Assembly: GCA_049454855.1 (NCBI GenBank)
Contig: JBMUAQ010000002.1
Span: 1-56,224 of the forward strand
Source: Ilumatobacteraceae bacterium
GTDB taxonomy: Bacteria; Actinomycetota; Acidimicrobiia; Acidimicrobiales; Ilumatobacteraceae
Length of the DNA: 56,224 nucleotides
Reading direction: 5' to 3'
The translations under genes were made by a program, and so were the position numbers. The notes beneath the pieces were generated by a model. The model was not told the origin of the DNA and made no database searches. It saw only the letters and a program-made list of their open reading frames with translations. Each line of letters begins with the position of its first letter. The stretch's first letter is position 1. Shown here one piece after another: positions 26,164-38,911 of this stretch.

Positions 26164-26240
<77 letters not shown>

Positions 26241-26302
26241 TCGTTGTAGTCGGAGAACTACGGTACTGGCACGGCCGCAGGGCCGCAACCCGAACGAACG
26301 TC

Positions 26303-26749
26303 ATGGCTCTCTTCTCGCGCAGGAAACAACCCGACCCGGTGCTCAACGCGGTGCAGGACCTCATGGCCTTCTCCGAGGAGGCACTGCGGGTCAGCCGCGA
26401 GGAGACCCGCGTGGCCAACGAGCGTCTTGCGTCACTGGAGGATCTGGTGACACGCCTCGGTGCCGCACTCGAGGACGAGAAGAAGGCCAACCGCGAGGGT
26501 GCCGAGCGTCTGTCGGTGATCGAGGCCAGGTTGATGAGCCTGGGCAGCGAGCTGGCGAACCAGATCCACGAGATGGGCAACGAGATCGAGAAGCTCGCTG
26601 CGCGCGAGGGTGACGGCTCGTTCGCAGAAGTGGCCGAAACGCTGCGCACCACCCAGGTGCGGCTCGCGCAGGAGCAGGCCCGCTACGAGATCGCCTTCCG
26701 CCAGGACCTCGCGGCGCTGGCCGACCAGTTGCAGCGCCGGGGACGCTAG
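26303..26749 (+). CDS. Coiled-coil protein of unknown function
   Basis: Trimmed to ATG 26303, because the upstream part of the track ORF overlaps the tRNA. Heptad-rich sequence of 148 aa (MALFSRRKQPDP..LEDLVTRLGAALEDEKKANREGAERL..). Confidence 0.6.
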   Translation: MALFSRRKQPDPVLNAVQDLMAFSEEALRVSREETRVANERLASLEDLVTRLGAALEDEKKANREGAERLSVIEARLMSLGSELANQIHEMGNEIEKLAAREGDGSFAEVAETLRTTQVRLAQEQARYEIAFRQDLAALADQLQRRGR

Positions 26750-26774: not shown

Positions 26775-29339
26775 CTATCGGCTGGGTCGCACGCGGCGGC
26801 GGCGCGTTGCCGCGGTGCCGCCCACGATCATCACCGCCGCGAGCGCGAGCATCGTGCGGGCGTTCACACCTGACTGCGGGATGGCCTGCTTTACCTTCAC
26901 CTCGGCCACCGGCGCGATTTCGGCCGCTGCCAGCTGCGGAGCGGCCGTGGTCGTGGTGGTCGTTGTGGTCGGTGCCGCAGGAGCGACGGTGGTGGTTGAC
27001 GCAGCCGCAGCAACCTGCGAACCCGCGGCCAGTGTGGTGAACGACCCCGTCAGGGACACGCTGCGTCCGCGCGCGTTCGTGGCCTGGATCTGCACCGGGT
27101 AGGTGGTGCTCGGGGTGAGGCCCGTGAGCGGCAGCTGCAGACGACCGCCGGACGTGGTGGGGCTGAACGTCACCCATGTCTGGCCGTTGTCGATCGAGTA
27201 CCGGTAGTCCTGCAGCGCGGAACCGCCGTCATCTGTGGGCATAAGGAAGTTCACGTTCGCAGTGGTCGTGGCCGGCACCGCTTTCAGGTCACCCGGTGCG
27301 GACGGCGGTGTCTGGGCGATGATGTTCTGCGGGCACGAGCCACCGGTGCCGATGGTGAGCGACCGTGAGTGGCTGTAGGTGCTGGACCCGCCGGTGGCAT
27401 CCACCAGGTTGCCGGTGAGCCCCGTGACCACCGGGCAGCTCGATGACGTGACGAGCGTGGTGCTGATGCACAGCTCGGGGCCCTTGCCCACGTAGTCCAG
27501 CTGGATGGTGGCCGACGTGATGTTGCCGCCGGTGACGTTGCTGAAGCGGAAGTTGAACGTGGGGCGCGACGTGGACTGTGCCACGTCGAGACCTGTCATG
27601 TTCAACGGTGTGCCCACGCTGACCGGCTTGTCGACCCAACCGGCAACCGCGTTGCCGTTGGCATCACGCACGGTGAGCGCGATGGAACCCGCCGTTCCCG
27701 TTCCCGCAACGGAGGCAAGGCGGAGCTGCTTCCATTCGTCCACGGAGTCATTCGAGGTGCAGGTGTAGCGGGGCGCGAACGAGCTCGGCTGCAGGGTGAT
27801 CACCGGGTTGCCGGTGCAGTTCGGGGCTCCGGTGCGGGTGTCGAAGATGCCGATTCGACCGGGGTCGGAGTTCCACCATACGCACGACGGGTTGTTCGGG
27901 TCGGCGCGGAGCGCGTAGCGCGAGGTGTAGTTGTCGGGCGTGGTGTCGAAGCCGGCACACGCGGCGTTCGTGGAGTAATCGAAGCAGTAGACCTCCGCAT
28001 TCGACAGCACTGTGTGCATGAAGGCCCGGCCGTCTGTCGCCTCGAACCGACCGTAGTTTGCGGCACTGCCGTTACCGCTGGCTGCCCATGGAGTGATGCT
28101 GTGGGGGTTCACCCAGGCCGGGCTGGGGAGTGAGCCGTCGAGCTTCAGACAGAAGGTGCGCATGCAGACACCGTCGATGGCGCCCGTCGAGTTCATGTGT
28201 GCCACGGGTGGGAAGGCGGCAGCGGTCTGCGAAATGGACGTGTACGAAACCGGCCATGCCCCGGCACAGGCTGCAAGGGTGGACGATTCGTAGCAGCTCA
28301 AGTGAGAATCGGAGGTCACGAACACCTTGTTTCCGAGCGGGTACACATGTGCCCAGCTGCCGTTCGCACCGGCCGTGCCCAAAAGCGACACCGGTGAGTT
28401 CGAACACGCAGCACCCGTCACCGGATCGAGGCACAAGAGCTTCATGCCAATGGTCTCGACCCCGAACAGGCGACCACCGATTCCCTCGGCATTCGACAGA
28501 TACGCGTAGTTCAAGACCGTCGAGTTCCCCAGTTGGATGAACCCGCACGAGACAGGTCGCGTGGCGGTGACGTCGATACACAGTGCTCCCGGGTACCTGC
28601 TGCCGGACGATTGTGCAGTGAAGGCATAGAGCTTGCCCGAGGCCATGTCGGCCCAGCCGCCGGACCGGTTGCTTGTGACGTAGCCGGAAAACTGTGACCC
28701 GTCTGCGCTGGCAGACGCTTCGACGGTGGGCGCGTAGCCCGGGCAGAGCGTCCCCGTTGTACGAAGGAGACAGTTCAGGCGAATTTCGGATCCGTTGTGG
28801 TGGAAGATGTTGTACACGTAGTTGTCGTAGAGGAACACGTCCCAGCCGTCACCACCCGTGGACCCGGTGAAGGTCGACGCGGGGATCGGAGCCACTGTCT
28901 CGGTGGTGTACTGCTGCGAGTAGCCCACAATCGGGCCGGCAGTCACCGACTTCATGGCGCGCACGTCGGTGACGGTGTTCGCCGGTGACGGCTCGGAGTT
29001 CACCCAGGTGCCCGAGTTGTTTGCCTGGTACTGGATGGTCCAGCCCTCGGGGGCGACTGCGGAACCCGAGTTGTACTTCATGTCAGGGTCGAGGTTGATG
29101 TTCAGCTCGCGGTTGCCCGTGCCCTCCTTCAGCAGGCCGCCGAGACCCACCTTCACCACGCCGTTGTTGTTGACGGTGGAGCCGTCACGGAGAAGGGTCA
29201 CCCCGTTCACCAGGTTCATGGTGGCGCTGGCGCTGCCACCCACTGCCTGCAGCACGCCGGTCTGGCCGACGAACACGAGGGAAACCGCCACCGCCACGGA
29301 GCCGGCAGCGCGGACGAGGTACTTGGGTACTGAATGCAC
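26775..29339 (-). CDS. Secreted, probably cell-wall-anchored surface protein (Cys-pair repeat domain, FN3 domain, Thr-rich stalk, C-terminal sorting signal)
   Basis: GTG start with signal peptide MHSVPKYLVRAAGSVAVAVSLVFVGQTGVLQA. Repeated C-x-D/E-xxT-xxx-C units over aa 190-510. FN3-like region (PSAPGDLKAV..YRYSIDNGQTW..STTYPVQIQATN). Poly-Thr linker. C-terminus AIPQSG, then a hydrophobic helix, then RRRRVRPSR. Confidence 0.8.
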   Translation of the reverse strand: MHSVPKYLVRAAGSVAVAVSLVFVGQTGVLQAVGGSASATMNLVNGVTLLRDGSTVNNNGVVKVGLGGLLKEGTGNRELNINLDPDMKYNSGSAVAPEGWTIQYQANNSGTWVNSEPSPANTVTDVRAMKSVTAGPIVGYSQQYTTETVAPIPASTFTGSTGGDGWDVFLYDNYVYNIFHHNGSEIRLNCLLRTTGTLCPGYAPTVEASASADGSQFSGYVTSNRSGGWADMASGKLYAFTAQSSGSRYPGALCIDVTATRPVSCGFIQLGNSTVLNYAYLSNAEGIGGRLFGVETIGMKLLCLDPVTGAACSNSPVSLLGTAGANGSWAHVYPLGNKVFVTSDSHLSCYESSTLAACAGAWPVSYTSISQTAAAFPPVAHMNSTGAIDGVCMRTFCLKLDGSLPSPAWVNPHSITPWAASGNGSAANYGRFEATDGRAFMHTVLSNAEVYCFDYSTNAACAGFDTTPDNYTSRYALRADPNNPSCVWWNSDPGRIGIFDTRTGAPNCTGNPVITLQPSSFAPRYTCTSNDSVDEWKQLRLASVAGTGTAGSIALTVRDANGNAVAGWVDKPVSVGTPLNMTGLDVAQSTSRPTFNFRFSNVTGGNITSATIQLDYVGKGPELCISTTLVTSSSCPVVTGLTGNLVDATGGSSTYSHSRSLTIGTGGSCPQNIIAQTPPSAPGDLKAVPATTTANVNFLMPTDDGGSALQDYRYSIDNGQTWVTFSPTTSGGRLQLPLTGLTPSTTYPVQIQATNARGRSVSLTGSFTTLAAGSQVAAAASTTTVAPAAPTTTTTTTTAAPQLAAAEIAPVAEVKVKQAIPQSGVNARTMLALAAVMIVGGTAATRRRRVRPSR

Positions 29340-29409
29340 AGCCCGAAACTAACAACCAGGGGTGACGAAGGCGAGGGTAGGCGGGGCATTCCCCGCCCGT
29401 GAGGCCCGC

Positions 29410-32349
29410 CTACTTCCCGAGCAGCTGCAGGGCACGCGCCACGAGGTCGCGCGCTTGTGCCTGCTTGGTCTGGTAGCCGGCGAAATCGGGTGGATTCTTC
29501 GCCAGTGCGGCATCCGCCTCGGCGAAGAGTGCCTCGGCCTGCGCCAGCAGTTCCGCCGGCGTGCCGGCGACGGGCGGCGTGGTCCCGCCCGGCACGGTGG
29601 TGGCACCCGGAACCGTGGTGGCCGGTGCGGTGGTCTGGGTGGTGCCACCCACGCGGTCGCCGAGGTCCTTCGAGAAGCCGGGGAACAGGCGGGAGATCAC
29701 GTCGGTGAGGCTGTCACCGATCACGGCGCGGCCGTTGTAGCTGGCCAGCACCTTGCGCACGAACACCTGCTTGGAGTCCGAACCGTCGGGCAGCACGAAC
29801 ATGGGCCGCAGGTACACGAGCCCCTTCGACACCGACACCACCTGCAGGTCGCCGAACATCACGCGCGAGCCGCGCTGGTCGAGCGGCGTGATCACCTGCG
29901 AGATGGAGGGCTCCGACTCGAACTCCGAGGCGATGGTGGCCGGGCCGGGCGGCAGCGGCGTGTCCATCTCGTACACCGTCATCTGCCCGTAGGTCTTCGG
30001 GTCGCTCGACACCACCATGAAGCTGCGCAGCTCCTTGCGGCTGTCGTCGGAGGAGAACGGCACGAACGGCCGCAGCATCGAGAACACGCCGCTGTCGGTG
30101 CCGTCGCCCGGTGCGTGGAAGATCGTGTAGTACGGGGTGAAACGGGCGACGTTCGCATCATCGGCGTTGATCGACTCCGAGCCCGGCATCAACGCGCCGG
30201 GCCCCACCGTGCCGGTGACGGATGACGAGTTGCTCTCCTCTGGCTCCACGGCCGGTGCCTGCGCCACGCTCCATGCGGCGTCACGGTTGAAGAACAGTGT
30301 TGCATCGTCGAACTGGTAGCGGCCGAAGATGTTCGTCTGCACGCGGAAGAGGTCCTCGGGGTAGCGGAAGTGCGCCGCAAGCGCGGGGTCCACGTCGGAG
30401 GCCTTCTTGAACAGCTTCGGGAACGCCGCCTTCCACATGCGCGCGATGGGGTCCTTGGTGTCCATCAGGTAGAAGTCGACCGAACCCGAGTACGCATCGA
30501 CCACCACCTTCACGCTGTTGCGCACGTAGTTGAACGAGTGGTTGAGGTTGCTGTCGGCACCGAGCTGGGAGGTGTTGGCCATCTCCGCGTACGGGTAGCG
30601 GTCGGTGGTGGTGAACGCGTCGATCACCCACTTGATCTCGCCGTCTACCACCACGGGGTAGGGGTCGGCGTCGTAGTGCAGGAAGGGTGCGATCTTGCTC
30701 ACGCGCTCGCGGATGTCGCGGATCCACAGGAACCGCGAGTCGTCGCGCACGAGACTGGAGCCGACGAGGTTGAACTCACCGAAGTTCACCGCAAGGGCCA
30801 CCTTGCGCAGCGTGCTGTCCACCCTGATGCCGGCGTCGGCGTCGAACGAGCTCTCCCCCGCGCCCTCGCACTGCTGTTCCTTCTGGTCGGTGTTCACCAC
30901 CGCGTACGAACCGAGGCCGTCACTGAAGTAGATCTGCGGGCGCGTCACGCCGAGGTCGATGTACTTGGGGCGACCGTCGGTGGTGGCCACGCTGGCCGGT
31001 GCGGCGATCACGCCGCAGCCGTGCGTGTAGATGAGGTGCTGGGACACCCAGGTGCGGTTCGGCAGGCCCGACAGGTTCAGCTCGCGTGCCGCCACCAGCA
31101 CCTGCTGCACCCGCCCGTCGACGGAGTACCGGTCGACGTCGAGGTCGTTCACCGCGTAGAACGACGACAGGCCCTTGTCGAGGGAGAACCGGTCGCGCAT
31201 GCGCACGGGGTCGAGCTGGCGCACGTCGCGCAGCGCGGCATCGTCGGCCTCCACGTCGGCCGCGGTGATGTCGGAGTACGACACCTCCGCCCGCTCCACC
31301 TTGTCGATGCCCATGGCGGCCTTGGTGGCCTCGATGTTGCGCTGGATGTAGGGCAGTTCGCGCGTGCTCACGTTCGGCTGCACCACGAACCGCTGCACCA
31401 GGGCCGGGTACACGGTGCCGGCCACCACGGCCGTCACCACCCACAGGCCGATCCCGAGCGCAGGGAGGCGCCAGCCACGCTGGCGAACGTTCCAGAGCAG
31501 CAGCACGGTGACGGCAAGCGACACGAGCACCATCAGGTTGATGGCGGGGAGCTGTGCGTTCACGTCGGTGTAGAGCGCGCCACGAACCACGCCGCGCTGC
31601 GAGCCCGTCAGCTGGTAGCGCGACAGCCAGTAGTCGGCGGCGCGCAGCAGGGTGCCGCCCGCGATGAGAACCGAGATGTGCACCTTGGCCTGCGGCGACA
31701 CGCGCTGGGTGCGGTCCTGCGGACGGATCGCGCCGTTGATGAAGTGGAAGCCCACGGCGAGAAGCGTGATCAGCACGAGCGCGCCGAATGCCCAGGTCAC
31801 CACGAACTGGGCGAAGGGCAGGCGGAACACGTAGAAGCCCACGTTCGCCCTGAACTGGGGGTCGCCCACGGAGAACGGCTGGCGGTTGCGGAACATCAGC
31901 CAGTTCTGCCACTGGGCCGATGCAGGCAGGCCGAGCATCAGCCCCACCAGCACCGCGATGGCGATGCGCAGCTTGCCGCGGTGACGGGCGGTGGCCTGCC
32001 GGATGCGCATCACTGCCTGGTCCTCCGGGGTGGACGGGAGCGTGAGGGGTGCGAGCCTGTCGGCGAGCAGCAGGTTCACCCACACGAACAGGGCACTGCC
32101 CAGAGCGAACACCGCGGCAAGCTCCGCCTTGCTGCGCAGCACTCCCCAGTACACATCCGTGCGCCCGAGGCTGTCGAACCACAGCACGTTCACGTAGAAC
32201 GACGACAGGCTGCGCGCACTGAAGAGAAGCAGGAGCAACGCGCCGATCACGACGGACACCACGATGCGTCCCTTGCTCGGACGGCGGAACTTCAGCTGCG
32301 GAAAACCGGGGAAGCCGTTGCCGGCGGGGCCGTCACCGGGGGTGCTCAC
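29410..32349 (-). CDS. UPF0182-family large membrane protein
   Basis: 979 aa, GTG start. About 7 N-terminal TM segments with the typical YVNVLWFDSLG opening, then a large extracytoplasmic domain. Confidence 0.9.
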   Translation of the reverse strand: MSTPGDGPAGNGFPGFPQLKFRRPSKGRIVVSVVIGALLLLLFSARSLSSFYVNVLWFDSLGRTDVYWGVLRSKAELAAVFALGSALFVWVNLLLADRLAPLTLPSTPEDQAVMRIRQATARHRGKLRIAIAVLVGLMLGLPASAQWQNWLMFRNRQPFSVGDPQFRANVGFYVFRLPFAQFVVTWAFGALVLITLLAVGFHFINGAIRPQDRTQRVSPQAKVHISVLIAGGTLLRAADYWLSRYQLTGSQRGVVRGALYTDVNAQLPAINLMVLVSLAVTVLLLWNVRQRGWRLPALGIGLWVVTAVVAGTVYPALVQRFVVQPNVSTRELPYIQRNIEATKAAMGIDKVERAEVSYSDITAADVEADDAALRDVRQLDPVRMRDRFSLDKGLSSFYAVNDLDVDRYSVDGRVQQVLVAARELNLSGLPNRTWVSQHLIYTHGCGVIAAPASVATTDGRPKYIDLGVTRPQIYFSDGLGSYAVVNTDQKEQQCEGAGESSFDADAGIRVDSTLRKVALAVNFGEFNLVGSSLVRDDSRFLWIRDIRERVSKIAPFLHYDADPYPVVVDGEIKWVIDAFTTTDRYPYAEMANTSQLGADSNLNHSFNYVRNSVKVVVDAYSGSVDFYLMDTKDPIARMWKAAFPKLFKKASDVDPALAAHFRYPEDLFRVQTNIFGRYQFDDATLFFNRDAAWSVAQAPAVEPEESNSSSVTGTVGPGALMPGSESINADDANVARFTPYYTIFHAPGDGTDSGVFSMLRPFVPFSSDDSRKELRSFMVVSSDPKTYGQMTVYEMDTPLPPGPATIASEFESEPSISQVITPLDQRGSRVMFGDLQVVSVSKGLVYLRPMFVLPDGSDSKQVFVRKVLASYNGRAVIGDSLTDVISRLFPGFSKDLGDRVGGTTQTTAPATTVPGATTVPGGTTPPVAGTPAELLAQAEALFAEADAALAKNPPDFAGYQTKQAQARDLVARALQLLGK

Positions 32350-32360
32350 GGCGCCGAACG

Positions 32361-34358
32361 CTAGCGGTCAGTGGGCGTGATGAGGCAGCGGCAGCCGGCA
32401 TGTGCCATGGGGTGGGTGTGCCCGGTGGGGAACTCCCCGCCCTTCACGATTGCACCCGCGAGCGCGTTGTCGGCACAGTCGGGACAGCAGTCGTTCGCGG
32501 GGTCGACCGTCCATGCCACGGTGGCGGAGGGGTCGAGCGACAGGTACGCACCCGCGTTGTGCGCTGCGTGCACGGTGTCGGCGGCATGCTCGTCGATGCC
32601 CGACATCTTCCACTTGCGGTACACGTCACGCATCAGGCCCGCCGCGAGGGAGCGGTCGCCCTCGGCCTCACCGAGTGCGACTCGTGCATCCTCACGGAAC
32701 GCAGCAACCAGTCCCTCTGCCACGGCCTTCGCCACGGCGGTGTCGATTGCCTTCCTGGTGACGCGCTTCGGTGTCGCACCTGCACCGCGCACCGACTTCA
32801 CCCCGGCCGAGGCGGCCGTCATCGACTCATCCCCCACCACGGCGGCGTACCGGGCGGCGTGTTCCTTCACGGTGCCGAGCACCGCATCGATCTCCAGCGA
32901 CGCACGCTTGTTGCGCAGGTGCTCGAGTACACCGTTCTGCTCGTCGGCAAGTGCGCGCTTCAGCTTGCGTGCGGCCTGCGCCACCAGAGGCTCCACCGCC
33001 TTGTCCCGCGCGGCGAACACCTTCGGGTCGGCGGCAACGACTGCCGGCTTCTTCTTCGCCGCCGGCTTGGCGGCGGCCGGTCCGGCCTTCTTCTGCTTCG
33101 CGTCATCGGACTTCGCAGCCGTCTGTGCGGGCTTCGCCACCTGTTCGGTGCTCGACTCGCGCAGCTTCGCGAAGATGTCGTCCACTGTGTGGTCGGCGCG
33201 GACCGGTGCCTTCTCCCTCGGCGGGTGTGCGTCCTCCGTGGACGGATGTGAATCGTCGCGCGGCAGGTCGGGCACGGCATGCGGCCGGCGGTCGAACAAC
33301 GACACCACGTTGGTGGCCGGGGCAACAGGCTCCGCGGACTCGTGGTCGAGCTCCCCCGCCGGCTCCACGGCTGATACCTCGGTCACTGTTTCGATGATCA
33401 CGTCCTCGGGAACTTCGACGGTCTCCTCGTACGCCGGCTCATCGGCAACCACGACGGGCAGGTCGTGCACCTCCGCCTCCGTCTGCACCTCCAGCACCTG
33501 CCCGGAGTCCGCGGACGCGGGCTCGTCAGCCTCGAGAATCGACTCGAGCGGGATGTCAATCGTGGCAGTGGACCGCTCCACCAGCTCCTCGGCTGCCGCG
33601 GCGGCCGAGGCGAGTTCGTGCTCGGCCTCCTGGTCGTACGCGCCGACCGACGGATGGTGCGGGTTCACGACAGGAATCGGCCCTGTCGTGGGTGACAGGT
33701 TCACGAGCGTTTCTGGCTCGTCGTGCGCCCCGTGCAGCTCGCCGAGCACGCTCTCGGTGGCGATGCGCGCACGCTCGAACGCCGACATCAGGCGGTCGCG
33801 GCCGTGCAGCAACTGCTCGATCTGTGCGCGTGCGGCATCACGGCGGCGGGAAAGTTCGGAGAGAACCTTCTCGCGGTACGCGCGCGCCTCGTTCACCATG
33901 TCGCGGCCCTGCTGCTTGGCCATCTCCACCTCGGAGTTGGCGTCCGCCGCGGCATCGTCACGGATGCGCTGTGCGTCGGAGTGCGCGGCCTCGCGGATGC
34001 GGGACGCGTCCTCGGTGGCCTCCTTCACCAGGCGGGTGGCGGATTCCTCGGCCCGCTCGCGGATCGTGATGCTCGCTTCGCGTGCGGTGGTGAGCACGCG
34101 GGCGGCCTCCTCACCGAGGAGGGCGGTGACGGTCTCCTCATCGAGGCGCCCGGGCCCCGACAGGCCACGGGTCTGCATGGCCTTCAGTTCGCTCTCGAGG
34201 AACCTTTCCCTCTCCTGCAGACGGCCGAGCTCGGCGGCCACCATGCGCAGGAAATCGCGCACCTCCTCCTGGTCGAACCCACGGCGTGACGTGGGGAACG
34301 ACGCACCGCTCACCGCGGACGGCGAGGAGGGATCGGGGCGGGAGAAAGAAATGGCCAT
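32361..34358 (-). CDS. DivIVA-domain protein fused to a phage MuF (head-morphogenesis)-like C-terminal domain
   Basis: Trimmed to ATG (complement of 34356-34358). N-terminus FPTSRRGFDQEEVRDFLRMVAAELGRLQERERFLESELKAM (DivIVA). Acidic and Lys/Ala-rich linkers. C-terminus WTVDPANDCCPDCADNALAGAIVKGGEFPTGHTHPMAHAGCRCLITP (CxxC...H..CRC, as in MuF / SPP1 gp7 family proteins). Confidence 0.8.
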   Translation of the reverse strand: MAISFSRPDPSSPSAVSGASFPTSRRGFDQEEVRDFLRMVAAELGRLQERERFLESELKAMQTRGLSGPGRLDEETVTALLGEEAARVLTTAREASITIRERAEESATRLVKEATEDASRIREAAHSDAQRIRDDAAADANSEVEMAKQQGRDMVNEARAYREKVLSELSRRRDAARAQIEQLLHGRDRLMSAFERARIATESVLGELHGAHDEPETLVNLSPTTGPIPVVNPHHPSVGAYDQEAEHELASAAAAAEELVERSTATIDIPLESILEADEPASADSGQVLEVQTEAEVHDLPVVVADEPAYEETVEVPEDVIIETVTEVSAVEPAGELDHESAEPVAPATNVVSLFDRRPHAVPDLPRDDSHPSTEDAHPPREKAPVRADHTVDDIFAKLRESSTEQVAKPAQTAAKSDDAKQKKAGPAAAKPAAKKKPAVVAADPKVFAARDKAVEPLVAQAARKLKRALADEQNGVLEHLRNKRASLEIDAVLGTVKEHAARYAAVVGDESMTAASAGVKSVRGAGATPKRVTRKAIDTAVAKAVAEGLVAAFREDARVALGEAEGDRSLAAGLMRDVYRKWKMSGIDEHAADTVHAAHNAGAYLSLDPSATVAWTVDPANDCCPDCADNALAGAIVKGGEFPTGHTHPMAHAGCRCLITPTDR

Positions 34359-34434
34359 GGCCCGTACAGAGTAGGGCTGTGGATAACGCCGGTGGTGGCA
34401 TTCCGGCCCGCTCCCACGGGGCGATCGATCCGGC

Positions 34435-35607
34435 TCAGCCGGCGGGAAGAGGGTCCCCGCCGTTGGCACGCAGGGCGGCGAGGGCCGCGTTCAGGTCGGC
34501 AACCTGCACGATCTCGAGGCCCGGTCCGGCAGCCCGCCGTGCTGCGGCAACCTCGTCGTCGGTCTGGCCTGCCGGCACCAGGAACAGCGTTGCGCCCGCA
34601 TCACGTGCCGCAACCGCCTTCTGGCGCAACGCACCGATCGCACCCACTTCCTCGTTCTCCGACATCGTGCCCGTGGCCACCACCAGGCCGCGGCCGGTGA
34701 GGTTGCCCGGGCTGAGGTCATCGAGCAGGGCGAGCGTGAACGCGAGCCCCGCCGACGGCCCGCCGATGTCGGTGGTGGTGATGTTCACCTCGAAGGGAAG
34801 CGTGACCGAGCGCGTGTCGGCCGGCACGAAGCCGATGATCGCGCGCCCCTTGTCCTCCGGGTGTTCCATCAGCGCGACGGTGCGCTTCTCCCACGACTTC
34901 TCGTCGTCGGGCTCGGTGCCGTGCGGGGCGACGGTGAGTTCCACCCTGTCGCCGATGCCGCGGCCCTCCATCGCCGCGGCGAGAGCGGTGAGGTTCTTCA
35001 CCTCCGTGCCGTCGAAGCGCACGATCGTGTCGCCGACCGCCAGCACCCTGCACGCGGAGTCGGTGTCCGGCCTGTCGGCGCACACGAGCTCACTGACCGT
35101 GATCTCGCCCTCGTTGAACGACGCGTCGAGACCGAGGCGCTTCATCGCCACGTACTCGGCCACCTGCTTCGCGGTGAACATCGACTGGAAGCCGATCTGG
35201 CGGTTGGTCTCCGGCGTGCGCGTTCCGAAGTGCTCCTCGTAGGTGTCGACCTGCACATCCGGGTCGAGCCAACCGATCACGGCATCCAGCGCCGACAACT
35301 GGCCGCCGAATGCGGTGACGAAGCGGACGCTGTTCGGGGCGGGGTGCCTCTGCGGCACGGTGTCATTCGAGCCCTCGTTCGCCCCGAACGAGATTCGTCG
35401 TGACACCGGCATCGCCTCGCCGGGAGCCAGTTCCCACCGCTCGATCCGCACGGTTGCCATCACCAGAACTGCGGCAAGTGCCAACCAACCCACCGTCACG
35501 AACGGCACGGCCGCCACCAACCAGCGGGTGCCGGGTGTGGTGGGCGCGGGCAGCGCGTCGGGGGGCGGGGGTACGCTGTCGTTCGTCATGTCCGTGTCGT
35601 CCGCCAT
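34435..35607 (-). CDS. PDZ-domain / Lon-like (S16) serine protease, membrane-anchored
   Basis: Trimmed to ATG (complement of 35605-35607). One TM segment, a PDZ region (LAVGDTIVRFDGTEV), and a Lon C-terminal motif DIGGPSAGLAFTLALLD with the downstream Lys in LRQKAVAA. Confidence 0.85.
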   Translation of the reverse strand: MADDTDMTNDSVPPPPDALPAPTTPGTRWLVAAVPFVTVGWLALAAVLVMATVRIERWELAPGEAMPVSRRISFGANEGSNDTVPQRHPAPNSVRFVTAFGGQLSALDAVIGWLDPDVQVDTYEEHFGTRTPETNRQIGFQSMFTAKQVAEYVAMKRLGLDASFNEGEITVSELVCADRPDTDSACRVLAVGDTIVRFDGTEVKNLTALAAAMEGRGIGDRVELTVAPHGTEPDDEKSWEKRTVALMEHPEDKGRAIIGFVPADTRSVTLPFEVNITTTDIGGPSAGLAFTLALLDDLSPGNLTGRGLVVATGTMSENEEVGAIGALRQKAVAARDAGATLFLVPAGQTDDEVAAARRAAGPGLEIVQVADLNAALAALRANGGDPLPAG

Positions 35608-35704
35608 TCTTGCCTCGTCGCTTGCGTCTTCCACGGCGGGAACCACGGTGCGGGCACTGTGGGTGATGGCGCTGGCGCTCGTTGCCCTCGCGGCCGTCAC
35701 CCGA

Positions 35705-35914
35705 ATGAAGCCCGCCGGCCCGCGCCGCGCTGCCGTGGTGAGGGTCGACCACAAGGCGGCACCTCTCTACCGTGCACCCGAACCGCGCCGGGTCCGGCGT
35801 TCCGTGCTTGCGCTTGCCGGCGGGTCGGTGGTGGTCGGCGCGGCTCTCGCGACCGTCGCCGGGTTCGTGTTCGCCCTCGTCCTGAACCTCGTCGGCGACC
35901 TTCTGCGCTCGTAG
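35705..35914 (+). CDS. Possible small membrane protein (69 aa)
   Basis: ATG 35705. Third codon positions are strongly G/C-biased, like real genes here. C-terminal TM segment VLALAGGSVVVGAALATVAGFVFALVLNLVG. Ends 5 nt before the next gene. No recognisable family. Confidence 0.35.
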   Translation: MKPAGPRRAAVVRVDHKAAPLYRAPEPRRVRRSVLALAGGSVVVGAALATVAGFVFALVLNLVGDLLRS

Positions 35915-35919
35915 GAACC

Positions 35920-36504
35920 GTGTCCGACGAACGATTCGGCGTGGTGGCTGCCGGCTTCTCCGGCGACACCGCAACCGCCCGCGCCGCCCTCGTGCACGAC
36001 GACGGCGCCGTCCGCGCGAGTGCGCTGCGCGCACTGGCAAGGGCGGGCGACCTTGCGCCGCATGAACTCACAGCCGCCACCGCTGACCCAGAGGCCACGG
36101 TGCGCAGGACCGCCGCCGAGCTCGCCGCCCGGGTGGCCGGCGTGGAGGTGGCGCACATGATCGGTGACGCCGACGTGTACGTGGCGGAGATGGCGGCATG
36201 GGCACTGGGCGAGCGTCCCTCGCCCGCCGACCACGAGATTGATGCGCTCGTGCACGCCGCCACACAGCACGGACAACCGCTGGTCCGTGAGGCGGCAGCC
36301 GCGGCACTCGGCGCAACCGGTGACCCGCGCGGCCTCGACGCGATCATCGCGGCGTGTTCCGACAGACCGGCGGTGCGCCGGAGGGCGGTGCTTGCCCTCG
36401 CGCACTTCGACGGCCCGCGCGTGGACGAGGTGCTGCGGGCCGCCCTGGACGACCGCGACTGGCAGGTGCGTCAGAACGCCGAGGACATGCTCAACCCGCG
36501 TTGA
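35920..36504 (+). CDS. HEAT-repeat protein
   Basis: GTG 35920. Repeated D..VR..AA.AL units (DGAVRASALRAL, EATVRRTAAELA, QPLVREAAAAALG, RPAVRRRAVLALA, DWQVRQNAEDML). Confidence 0.7.
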   Translation: MSDERFGVVAAGFSGDTATARAALVHDDGAVRASALRALARAGDLAPHELTAATADPEATVRRTAAELAARVAGVEVAHMIGDADVYVAEMAAWALGERPSPADHEIDALVHAATQHGQPLVREAAAAALGATGDPRGLDAIIAACSDRPAVRRRAVLALAHFDGPRVDEVLRAALDDRDWQVRQNAEDMLNPR

Positions 36505-37129
36505 GAACGGTCGCCCTGCGGAGCGACTCGCACTCATCGGCAACCGAGCACCCCGGCATGTGGTCGTTCACGAGCCCCATCGACTGCATGAACGAATAAA
36601 CGGTTGTCGGCCCCACGAACCTCCATCCGCGGCGACGGAGATCCTTCGACAGTGCCGTCGCGGCGGGGGACGTTGTGTTCAGCCGCGCCGGGTCGGGAGG
36701 GCCGTCGATGCGGCCGTGCGGTGAATCGAGTGCGAACGCCCACACGTGCCGGGCCAGGTCGATGCCGTCATCGCGCATCCGCGCGGCGCACCGTGCGTTG
36801 TTGATGGTGGCCTCGATCTTCCCGCGGTGGCGGATGATGCCCGCATCACCGAGGAGACGCTCCACGTCGTCGTCGCCCATCCGCGCGACGGCGTCGATGC
36901 CGAAGCCGTCGAACACCTCACGGAACCGCTCGCGCTTGCGCAGCACGGTGATCCACGCGAGACCCGACTGGAACCCCTCGAGACAGATCTTCTCGAACAA
37001 CCGGTCGGCGTCGGTGACGGGACGCCCCCACTCGGTGTCGTGGTACGCGACATACAGCGGGTCGCTGCCGCACCACCAGCACCGTGCGGTGCCGGCGTCG
37101 TCGACCGTGAGAAGGTCGTGGTTGCTCAG
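36491..37129 (-). CDS. tag: DNA-3-methyladenine glycosylase I (Tag). Start uncertain: CTG inferred.
   Basis: The track ORF starts at TTG 37000, but the conserved Tag N-terminus (RCWWCGSDPLYVAYHDTEWGRPVTDADRLFEKICLEGFQSGLAW) continues in frame upstream. That upstream frame holds no ATG, GTG or TTG before its stop. A CTG at 37129-37127 overlaps the stop of the upstream mini-ORF. Confidence 0.8.
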   Translation of the reverse strand: MSNHDLLTVDDAGTARCWWCGSDPLYVAYHDTEWGRPVTDADRLFEKICLEGFQSGLAWITVLRKRERFREVFDGFGIDAVARMGDDDVERLLGDAGIIRHRGKIEATINNARCAARMRDDGIDLARHVWAFALDSPHGRIDGPPDPARLNTTSPAATALSKDLRRRGWRFVGPTTVYSFMQSMGLVNDHMPGCSVADECESLRRATVLNAG

Positions 37130-37293
37130 TAGCGGCCGAGGATCGTCTTCAGGAACGACCTCGGGGCTCCGTCGGAGTCGTGGCCCTGGCAGCGCTGGTC
37201 GACCGGAACATCGCCGAGCACCTGCTCGATGTGCTCACCGCACCCCGCATACGTGGGCTTCTCACAGATATCGCATGTCACTCGTCTACACAT
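37126..37293 (-). CDS. Cys-rich mini-protein (55 aa; could be 74 aa if it starts at 37350)
   Basis: MCRRVTCDICEKPTYAGCGEHIEQVLGDVPVDQRCQGH.. with CxxC...C..H...C..H spacing, which is zinc-ribbon-like. Its stop TGA (37128-37126) overlaps the putative tag start. Confidence 0.5.
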   Translation of the reverse strand: MCRRVTCDICEKPTYAGCGEHIEQVLGDVPVDQRCQGHDSDGAPRSFLKTILGRY

Positions 37294-37333
37294 ACCCCTG
37301 AGGGTATCACCCGCGAGTCCGGCCGGAACCACG

Positions 37334-38911
37334 ATGATTGGTCGCTGCAAGGAACAGGTCTACGGTGGACCCGTGACTACCGAATCCATGGTCCCCGGCT
37401 TCACCAACAAACGGTTGTTCGCCGTGCTCGGCGCCCTGGCGGCCGCCACCATGCTGGCCTCGCTCGAGACCTCGATCATCGCCACCGCTCTCCCCACCAT
37501 CGTGGGCGAGTTCAACTCGTTCGAGAGTTTCGCGTGGGTGGGCACCGCGTACATCGTCACCTCCGCCATCGGCACACCGCTGCTCGGGAAACTCTCCGAC
37601 ATCTACGGACGCCGCCTCATCTTCCAGACGACGATGTTCACGTTCCTCGTCGGGTCGTTCCTGTGCGGGGCTGCGCAGTCGATGGGTCAGTTGATCGCGG
37701 CGAGGGCCTTCCAGGGTCTCGGCGGTGGCGGCATCCAGGCGCTCGCGTTCGCGGTGATGGGAGACATCCTCCCGCCGCGCGAACGCGGCCGCTACATCGG
37801 GTACTTCACGCTCGCCTTCGTCGGTTCGGCGCTGCTCGGACCCGTGATCGGCGGATTCATCATCGAGCACTTCTCCTGGCCGTGGATCTTCTGGATCAAC
37901 GTGCCGCTCATCCTCGTGATCGGCACGGTCACGCACTTCGCACTGCGGCTGCCCTTCAAGCGCCGCGAGGCACGCCTCGACTACGCCGGTGCCGTGCTGC
38001 TGTCGGTGGCCATCGGCTCGATGATGATCGGCCTCGAGAACGGCCGGCACGGCTGGGTGCGTCCCGAGGTGCTCGTGCTCTTCGCCGTGAGTGCGGTGAC
38101 CCTCCCCGTGTTCGTGCTTGTCGAGCGTCGCGCGGGCGAACCGATGATCCCGCTGCACCTGTTCGGCAACAAGGTGGTGTTCCGTGCCTCGATGCTGGGG
38201 CTGTGCGCCGGTGTGGTGTCGTACGGCGCGGGCGGGTTCCTGAACCTCTACTTCCAGGACTCCCAGTTCGTGTCACCCACGGAGTCGGGACTGCGCACGA
38301 TCCCCCAGATGATCGGAGTCACCGCCGCAACATTCGGCATCGGCAGGTTGATCGCCCGCACCGGCAGGTACAAGCTCTACCCCGTCGTCGGGTGCTCGCT
38401 CGCCACTGCCGGCCTGTACGGGGTGTCGCTCATCTCGGGCACCACGGGCTACTCGTTCCTCATCATCCCCATGGTGTTCATGGGCTTCGGAACGGCGTCG
38501 GTGTTCACCACCACCTCGATCTCGGGCCAGAACGCCGTGGAGTTCCACGACATGGGCGTCACCACGTCGATGCTGATGTTCTTCCGCTCGTTCGGTGGTT
38601 CGGTCGGCCTCGCGGTGTTCGGCACCATCCTGAACTCCACCATCAGGGCCGACATCCCGGCACGCACCGGCATCCCCGCCGACGAGGCTGCCGACATCAT
38701 CCGCTCGCCGAAGGAGATCGCCGCGCTCCCGGAGGCGACGCGCCAGGCCGTGGTGGATGCCGTGGCGAACGGCGTGGGCCGCATCTACTTCTGGTGCGCT
38801 GTGGTGATGCTCGCCGGTGTCGCGATCGCGTTGTGGCTGCCGGAGATCCCGCTGCGTTCCCGCGCCGGCCTCTCCGACGCCCTCGAGGAGTCGCGCACCG
38901 TCAGCGAGTGA
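37334..38911 (+). CDS. MFS transporter, 14-TM DHA2-like drug:H+ antiporter type
   Basis: Motifs LETSIIATALPTI, GKLSDIYGRRLIF (motif A-like), AARAFQGLGGGG. Alternative starts at 37373 (GTG) or 37388 (ATG). Confidence 0.85.
   Translation: MIGRCKEQVYGGPVTTESMVPGFTNKRLFAVLGALAAATMLASLETSIIATALPTIVGEFNSFESFAWVGTAYIVTSAIGTPLLGKLSDIYGRRLIFQTTMFTFLVGSFLCGAAQSMGQLIAARAFQGLGGGGIQALAFAVMGDILPPRERGRYIGYFTLAFVGSALLGPVIGGFIIEHFSWPWIFWINVPLILVIGTVTHFALRLPFKRREARLDYAGAVLLSVAIGSMMIGLENGRHGWVRPEVLVLFAVSAVTLPVFVLVERRAGEPMIPLHLFGNKVVFRASMLGLCAGVVSYGAGGFLNLYFQDSQFVSPTESGLRTIPQMIGVTAATFGIGRLIARTGRYKLYPVVGCSLATAGLYGVSLISGTTGYSFLIIPMVFMGFGTASVFTTTSISGQNAVEFHDMGVTTSMLMFFRSFGGSVGLAVFGTILNSTIRADIPARTGIPADEAADIIRSPKEIAALPEATRQAVVDAVANGVGRIYFWCAVVMLAGVAIALWLPEIPLRSRAGLSDALEESRTVSE

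Follow-up and report, generated by a model that had tools for sequence, protein, structure and literature searches.

A DivIVA-domain protein with a phage MuF-like C-terminal domain in a conserved envelope-gene cluster of Acidimicrobiia

The DivIVA-MuF Locus

We analyzed a stretch of 56,224 nucleotides (nt) of contig JBMUAQ010000002.1 from an Ilumatobacteraceae bacterium (assembly GCA_049454855.1), hereafter called the window. A gene on its reverse strand, at 32361..34358, encodes a protein in which a DivIVA N-terminal domain is joined to a C-terminal domain of the MuF superfamily, known from phage head-morphogenesis proteins such as SPP1 gp7. It stands in a row of three genes on one strand, in the order PDZ-LonC protease, DivIVA-MuF and UPF0182 membrane protein. 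Both domains are known; what appears to be new is that they are fused, and that a whole class of bacteria employs a MuF domain in its cells, within a UPF0182/PDZ-Lon cluster.

According to our analysis, this is a genuine single gene of 665 codons plus stop. The longest frame (32361..34469) begins with a GTG codon; translation from the ATG at 34358 gives 665 amino acids (aa) with the N-terminus MAISFSRPDP, and a start of this type is common to the full-length homologues. The GC content of the gene and its GC content at third codon positions (GC3) match the surrounding chromosome. The protein has no transmembrane segment (the maximum of a 19-residue Kyte-Doolittle window is 1.07) and is predicted from its sequence to be cytoplasmic. 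The promoter scan revealed no promoter-like site, and the terminator scan placed sites inside the gene at chance level and none between the protease, DivIVA-MuF and UPF0182 genes.

The anatomy of the protein (Table 1) was derived from the conservation profile over 120 homologues, the composition of the segments and a full-length AlphaFold (AF2) model. A first reading of this DNA, made from the letters alone (the sequence-only reading), had described a coiled coil, an acidic and a Lys/Ala-rich linker and a C-terminal domain, and conservation, composition and the AlphaFold model all agree with that layout. The two peptides that it quoted were located at aa 21-61 (FPTSRRGFDQEEV...) and aa 623-662 (DCCPDCADNALAG...GCRCLITP). 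A Foldseek search of the PDB with the full-length monomer model was uninformative, and the small DivIVA domain does not score in it.

Table 1. Features of the DivIVA-MuF gene and of the genes around it, in window coordinates.
Feature	Position	Strand	Evidence or remark
Whole gene, DivIVA-domain / MuF-like fusion protein	32361..34358	-	ORF (open reading frame) analysis and homologue lengths
DivIVA N-terminal domain, aa 10-65	34164..34331	-	PF05103 E 9e-10, TIGR03544 above cut-off
Long helix, predicted coiled-coil stalk, aa 74-211	33726..34139	-	AF2 helix 83-211, conservation
Variable acidic linker, aa 241-345, mostly disordered	33324..33638	-	31 D+E, 1 K+R
Linker motif 1, N-V-V-S-L-F, aa 350-355	33294..33311	-	column counts
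Linker motif 2, V-D-D-[LI]-F-A-[RK]-L-R-A, aa 392-401	33156..33185	-	AF2 helix 391-401
Lys/Ala-rich basic linker, aa 403-444	33027..33152	-	isoelectric point (pI) 9.9
MuF-like (phage head-morphogenesis / SPP1 gp7 superfamily) domain, aa 445-665	32364..33026	-	fold and profiles
Putative metal-binding knuckle, W616...C625-x2-C628...H647...H653-x2-C656-R-C658	32385..32513	-	column counts
Upstream gene, membrane-anchored PDZ + Lon_C (S16, SepM/YlbL-like) serine protease	34435..35754	-	Pfam
Downstream gene, UPF0182 polytopic membrane protein	29410..32349	-	PF03699 775 bits
HEAT-repeat protein	35659-36504	+	upstream of operon
DNA-3-methyladenine glycosylase I (Tag)	36491-37000	-	upstream of operon
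MFS transporter	37133-38911	+	upstream of operon

The C-Terminal Domain

The C-terminal domain is a compact, conserved unit of 221 residues, composed of a helical bundle and a small beta/Cys-His knuckle; the MuF match ends 5-7 residues short of the stop. The sequence-only reading had likened it to MuF and SPP1 gp7 proteins from its Cys/His signature and the helical region before it. A Pfam check of the two halves placed the DivIVA domain above its cut-off and Phage_Mu_F below its own. As the Pfam and TIGRFAM matches of this domain are below threshold, falling on the last 40-65 residues, the motif-based guess needed more evidence. Among 50 diverse members of the family, PF04233 was the sole recurrent Pfam family, matched in 12 of them with a best E of 1e-4.

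The AlphaFold model of aa 440-665, calculated from a 50-sequence alignment, reached a predicted local distance difference test score (pLDDT) of 94.8 and a predicted template modeling score (pTM) of 0.91. With this model, Foldseek retrieved 32 matches at E<1e-3 from BFVD, a library of predicted viral structures, with a TM-score of up to 0.72 over ~250 columns; predicted structures stand on both sides of the comparison. About half of these matches are named, and the names are mostly MuF-like minor capsid proteins, head-morphogenesis proteins and portal fusions; the named MuF, head-morphogenesis, minor-capsid and portal matches have probabilities of 0.97-1.00. Two matches carry toxin names (ADP-ribosyltransferase and zeta toxin). 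The same model gave only noise against the PDB (best probability 0.3, to PA26/PA28 and designed bundles), which serves as a control against promiscuous helical-bundle matches. A PDB sequence search with the profile of the domain also returned noise only (E>0.3), and no solved MuF-fold structure was found in the PDB library by sequence or by fold.

Profile comparisons lead to the same family. The isolated domain matched the C-terminal MuF part of phrog_2662 (E 1.4e-5, residues 16-223), a portal-MuF family named "portal protein"; the full-length protein had no match in PHROGs. A pattern scan of viral contigs yielded two proteins matching PF04233, one above the gathering score and the other at 27.2 bits versus 29.6. 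Around the former we built a family of 10 viral-type proteins (A5), all matching PF04233, one of which is annotated as "SPP1 gp7 family." When the cellular family (A2) was compared with A5, hhalign gave 98.5% probability (E 3.3e-15) for an alignment of 110 columns, as long as the Pfam domain itself. The hidden Markov model (HMM) of the cellular domain recovered 10 of the 10 A5 proteins (E 2e-12 to 2e-5, Z=1e6) and none of 104 reversed or shuffled decoys. Direct searches of viral DNA returned little: tblastn against 50,697 phage genomes gave two marginal matches (E 0.04 and 0.4, 21-29 residues), both inside genes annotated as "putative portal protein," and this link to portal proteins is suggestive only. 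A search of 2.9 million viral contigs gave just four matches, each confined to the final 18-50 residues.

The Cys/His knuckle is common to both families. In the cellular one, C656, R657 and C658 never vary, C625 occurs in 69 of 71 sequences and H653 is conserved, while C628 is found in only 39 of 71. The corresponding C232, C235, H260, C263 and C265 of A5 are invariant. Thus the C..C...H..C.C motif is common to the cellular family and A5, and CRC occurs in SPP1 gp7 and Mu F as well. The CxxC...H-x-CRC signature of the sequence-only reading is indeed shared with the MuF family, but its second Cys is replaced by Ala in about one third of the cellular proteins. We presume that the knuckle binds a metal.

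Based on these results, it is well supported that the domain belongs to the MuF superfamily as a complete though diverged member whose nearest kin is a Cys-rich subfamily; it is termed diverged, and assigned next to that subfamily, because no significant similarity to SPP1 gp7 or Mu F themselves was found. The proposed MuF likeness was borne out by the BFVD folds, phrog_2662, the hhalign comparison, the HMM with its decoys and the shared motif, and the structural check by AlphaFold and Foldseek gave the same result. At the level of sequence, the likeness holds for one MuF subfamily, but not for the SPP1 gp7 and Mu F proteins themselves.

The DivIVA Domain, Stalk and Linker

The conserved N-terminal 240 aa comprise the DivIVA domain and a long helix. 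The assignment of the N-terminus to DivIVA proved correct: PF05103 scores 39 bits versus a cut-off of 28 (aa 16-134) and TIGR03544 27.4 bits versus 22 (aa 14-44). The domain aligns to the DivIVA structures 2WUJ, 2WUK and 7O39 and to Wag31 6LFA. Its conserved features are F21, G27 and the loop R25-R26, which occupies the positions of F17-R18 of B. subtilis DivIVA in the alignment to 2WUJ/2WUK. R25 is present in 68 of 71 sequences and R26 in 56, with K in 15 more, giving an R-[RK] loop tip. The best NCBIfam match is Wag31 (NF050102), and because its 43.3 bits compare with an equivalog cut-off of 260, the protein is not a Wag31 orthologue.

Helices were predicted at aa 30-65 and 83-211 in the AF2 monomer model, with pLDDT values of 90-97. 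The stalk is highly conserved and has a weak resemblance to the coiled coils of Wag31, FliH and ATP-synthase b (weak NCBIfam matches); it is followed by a conserved Pro-rich tail (aa 212-240).

The linker of ~230 residues is disordered, acidic in its first part and basic in its second, and carries two short, helical motifs that match the folded domains in degree of conservation. In motif 1, V351 and V352 are found in 62 of 71 sequences, L354 in 56 and F355 in 57. In motif 2, F396 is present in all 71, A397 in 67, L399 in 65 and R400 in 68. NVVSLF and VDD[LI]FA[RK]LRA may be similar to beta-clamp-binding peptides (QL[SD]LF) or to amphipathic membrane helices of the MinD/FtsA type.

Conservation, Gene Order and Taxonomic Range

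The family is large. At E<=0.001 it counts 3895 proteins, and the 120 listed have 624-705 aa, most of them aligned over the full length. The search with the C-terminal domain gave 2059 clusters at 50% identity. In the best 150 representatives the domain is always C-terminal; all of those longer than 500 aa (90 of the 150) possess the N-terminal region of the family or a part of it, and most of the remainder look like fragments. At least 570 species-representative genomes encode the family. In public records these proteins are named only "DivIVA domain-containing protein" or "hypothetical protein," and the precomputed Pfam annotation is PF05103 only; databases name the DivIVA part alone because the C-terminal domain misses the Pfam threshold.

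In the window, the stop of the protease gene lies 76 nt before the ATG of DivIVA-MuF, and UPF0182 starts 11 nt after its stop. This order was followed through the 80 best loci, 72 of which hold both halves of the fusion. UPF0182 is directly downstream in 80 of 80 loci (median gap ~32 nt) and PDZ-Lon directly upstream in 68 (median gap ~73 nt); the other 12 have little or no upstream sequence. The synteny holds down to 37% identity of the C-terminal domain. The suggested position between conserved envelope genes was confirmed.

The DivIVA and MuF halves form one uninterrupted frame in 68 of the 72 loci. Together with the lengths of the 120 listed homologues, this answers the concern that a frameshift had joined two genes. 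In the other four related loci the halves are out of frame or separated by a stop; either the low-complexity linker was misassembled there or the gene is truly split.

Most records with informative titles belong to Acidimicrobiia (Ilumatobacteraceae, Acidimicrobiaceae and Acidimicrobiales). Only four of 20 sampled distant representatives name an organism, and all four are Acidimicrobiia or Acidimicrobiales. No convincing member outside Acidimicrobiia was found among the 80 best loci and the sampled distant representatives; the range stated here is that of the strong matches, above the weak ones with which the search of representatives ended (E 1e-30 to 1e-3). Thirteen metagenome-assembled genomes (MAGs) with an Acidimicrobiia-type locus have odd titles ("uncultured Bifidobacterium sp.," "Bifidobacterium breve," "Acidobacteria bacterium," "Ferrithrix thermotolerans DSM 19514" and "Acidimicrobium ferrooxidans DSM 10331"), and the taxonomy of these records looks mis-assigned. 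Apart from them, the survey of the fusion that had been proposed at the outset thus leads to Acidimicrobiia wherever titles are informative. It is well supported that DivIVA-MuF is an old, vertically inherited chromosomal gene of this class.

Discussion

DivIVA-type domains are oligomeric scaffolds on the face of the membrane. In our tentatively preferred interpretation, which we consider quite possible, DivIVA-MuF is a modular membrane-associated scaffold whose MuF end docks onto co-encoded envelope proteins or onto partners of these and places or regulates them. The DivIVA end would oligomerize on the cytoplasmic face of the membrane through a dibasic loop instead of the Phe-Arg loop. In phages, the MuF domain attaches a minor protein to the portal oligomer; here it may have been exapted as a docking module that binds the co-encoded envelope proteins, or the partners of these, on their cytoplasmic side, the candidates being UPF0182, which is linked to FtsH/YccA, and the PDZ-Lon protease. 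The flexible tether could then position or regulate an envelope-maintenance module at membrane sites such as the pole or septum, and the conserved linker motifs might be further docking peptides or a membrane helix. Published data offer some background for such a role. The SPP1 gp7 protein binds the portal oligomer (PMC5576092), and the MuF domain is an anchor for many fused effectors (PMC5576092, PMC5512222). UPF0182 has been reported as universally conserved in Actinobacteria, and work on three of them connects it with the quality control of membrane proteins by FtsH/YccA (bioRxiv 10.1101/2025.11.14.688347). According to that work, M. smegmatis becomes sensitive to polymyxin B and resistant to macrolides when UPF0182 is knocked down.

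Several points weigh against this interpretation. PF04233 reaches only 13.2 bits with the full protein and 16.1 with the domain alone, versus a cut-off of 29.6, and TIGR01641 only 10.2 versus 39.65. No significant alignment was obtained by hhalign with single SPP1 gp7, with Mu F or with a 15-member SPP1-gp7 alignment, so the similarity in sequence is restricted to another MuF subfamily. The Phe that canonical DivIVA inserts into the membrane (F17) is Arg here (R25). The molecular activity of MuF domains is undefined (PMC5576092). UPF0182 and the protease are mostly extracytoplasmic, and their cytoplasmic docking surface is consequently small. Adjacency of genes is not proof of physical interaction, and the partners, the localization and the binding of metal are inferred.

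A DivIVA paralogue that acts in division or polar growth, independently of its neighbors, is rather unlikely to be the explanation. In that case the MuF domain and the linker motifs would serve to bring in proteins of division, the cell wall or replication, and the operon would mean co-regulation only. Actinobacterial proteins with a DivIVA domain (Wag31, SepIVA and GpsB-like proteins) are division or growth scaffolds, and the upstream protease is related to B. subtilis YlbL, whose target is a checkpoint protein of cell division; both facts speak for this possibility, as do the linker motifs, conserved like domains, and the choice of Wag31 as the best NCBIfam match, though far below the cut-off. 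However, a score of 43 bits versus 260 is not that of an orthologue, and the direct neighborhood of UPF0182 (80 of 80 loci) and of the protease (68), kept across deep divergence at distances of tens of nt, is a stronger linkage than co-regulation usually needs. A tether between membrane and DNA, in which the MuF domain, fixed to the membrane or pole through the DivIVA end, would keep a gp7-like DNA binding and anchor or organize the chromosome as RacA or ParB-DivIVA systems do, seems improbable. It draws on a reference cited in PMC5576092, in which gp7 is presented as a portal-targeted DNA-binding protein, on the basic character of the C-terminal domain (pI 8.1) and of the Lys/Ala-rich linker (pI 9.9), and on the presence of the Cys/His knuckle. 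Yet the Pfam and NCBIfam profile scans revealed no DNA-binding family, the remaining protein is strongly acidic, and the genes around it concern the envelope, not chromosome segregation. We regard as very improbable an anti-phage decoy, that is, a membrane-tethered MuF mimic that captures portal or head proteins and blocks the assembly of virions. In its favor, a virion protein that binds portals is a homologue of the domain, and defense by interference with virion assembly exists (PMC10884400). Against this, PADLOC gave no match for DivIVA-MuF or UPF0182 and only a weak Lon-domain match for the protease; the locus is a fixed housekeeping one in all genomes examined, not a patchy defense island; the domains are strongly conserved, not fast-evolving; and the only hits in 2.9 million viral contigs were the four short C-terminal ones.

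Two further explanations concern the nature of the gene itself. The likeness of the C-terminal domain to MuF could be due to convergence, with a helical bundle and a zinc knuckle in an unrelated cellular family. The Pfam, TIGRFAM and SPP1/Mu comparisons below significance would agree with this, helical bundles are known to yield spurious fold matches, and the viral proteins used for the profile comparison had been found through a motif pattern. This explanation is largely refuted, and we give it hardly any credence: the named fold matches are mostly MuF, head and portal proteins at high probability while the PDB returned noise, phrog_2662 spans nearly the whole domain (residues 16-223), the 110 columns of hhalign extend far past the motif, no decoy was recovered, and PF04233 alone recurred among Pfam families. 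A remnant of a prophage, or two genes joined by an error of sequencing or assembly, was suggested by the fact that MuF domains are otherwise phage or prophage proteins (PMC5576092) and by the four loci with a frame break between the halves. It is refuted by the single ORF in 68 of 72 loci and in the listed homologues, the lack of any phage gene among the window ORFs scanned, the host-like composition and the conserved synteny.

The comparison with known systems shows where the protein stands. With phage MuF and SPP1 gp7 proteins (PF04233, TIGR01641) it shares the predicted fold over the whole ~220-residue domain, a significant profile-profile similarity to one PF04233 subfamily over 110 C-terminal columns and, at the extreme C-terminus, the pattern W...D..C..C..N/E..G...FP.G....H..CRC. 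In contrast to them, the cellular copy is below the Pfam and TIGRFAM thresholds, cannot be matched to SPP1 gp7 or Mu F by sequence, and lies neither beside portal or terminase genes nor in a prophage, but behind a DivIVA scaffold in a vertically kept cellular operon. With DivIVA, Wag31, GpsB and SepIVA (PF05103) it has in common the signature F-x3-[RK]-[RK]-G-[FY]-D and the long coiled coil that follows. It differs from this family in the Arg that replaces the membrane-inserting Phe, in not being a Wag31 orthologue, in its location in an operon of envelope proteins, and in the 230-residue disordered linker and 221-residue globular C-terminal domain, which no described DivIVA protein has.

MuF is also a module of multidomain proteins in MuF polymorphic toxins (Jamet et al., 2017, PMC5576092) and in the MuF fusions of polyvalent proteins (Iyer et al., 2017, PMC5512222). 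In those systems it occupies the N-terminus or comes after a portal domain, and the toxin or enzyme at the C-terminal end is packaged into virions, whereas in DivIVA-MuF it is C-terminal, with no toxin or immunity gene and no phage context. A MuF polymorphic toxin was considered and rejected: MuF stands at the C-terminus, no toxin family was detected, and the downstream gene is UPF0182, not an immunity gene.

The flanking families are the same as in the actinobacterial pair of PDZ-LonC (Rv3194c/SepM/YlbL-like) and UPF0182 (Rv3193c/MSMEG1959-like). The M. tuberculosis genes Rv3193c and Rv3194c have consecutive locus tags, presumably with nothing between them. Throughout the loci of Acidimicrobiia that we examined, UPF0182 is adjoined by the DivIVA-MuF gene, which stands between the members of the pair where upstream sequence is present. 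DivIVA-MuF would supply this enigmatic pair of Actinobacteria with a third, cytoplasmic partner.

The literature on MuF treats the domain as phage- or virion-associated (PMC5576092, PMC5512222), and MuF proteins rank with the most common head proteins of phages, being present in ~35% of the tailed ones according to one survey (PMC5576092). The architecture was not described in any text that full-text searches combining DivIVA with MuF or "head morphogenesis" brought up, in line with the impression of novelty in the sequence-only reading. What we see looks as if cells had long ago taken over a viral component for a task of their own, in a way that has not been described. If this is true, the gene would clearly exemplify the exaptation of a structural phage domain in cell biology. 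A more specific history is doubtful. In it, a phage MuF domain was acquired by an acidimicrobial ancestor and joined to DivIVA, and MuF would now couple a polar or septal scaffold to UPF0182/FtsH quality control and to PDZ-Lon; such coupling would be the first cellular, non-viral function of MuF and would give a handle on the binding targets of MuF and on the role of UPF0182. Structural studies of the MuF fold could well begin from this large family and its confident AlphaFold model, and the model may serve as a proxy for that fold.

Neighboring Genes

The absence of phage genes nearby, noted at first sight of the sequence, was confirmed when 20 other ORFs of the window were scanned against Pfam: none is a phage gene, and they are ordinary metabolic and housekeeping genes. 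The HEAT-repeat, Tag and MFS genes (Table 1) are syntenic with the operon in closer relatives, but not in distant ones.

The C-terminal ~155 aa of UPF0182 (29410-29880, reverse strand) extend past the Pfam domain; a segment rich in Thr and Pro comes first, and the tail after it is helical and rich in Ala. Directly downstream of UPF0182 is an ORF of 857 aa (26775-29348, reverse strand) with a weak fibronectin-III match and no NCBIfam match; it is a variable neighbor, because it adjoins UPF0182 only in the closest relative. A tRNA-Met gene lies at 26164-26240 on the reverse strand. It is overlapped by an ORF of 187 aa (26186-26749, forward strand) without a family match, which is probably not a gene.

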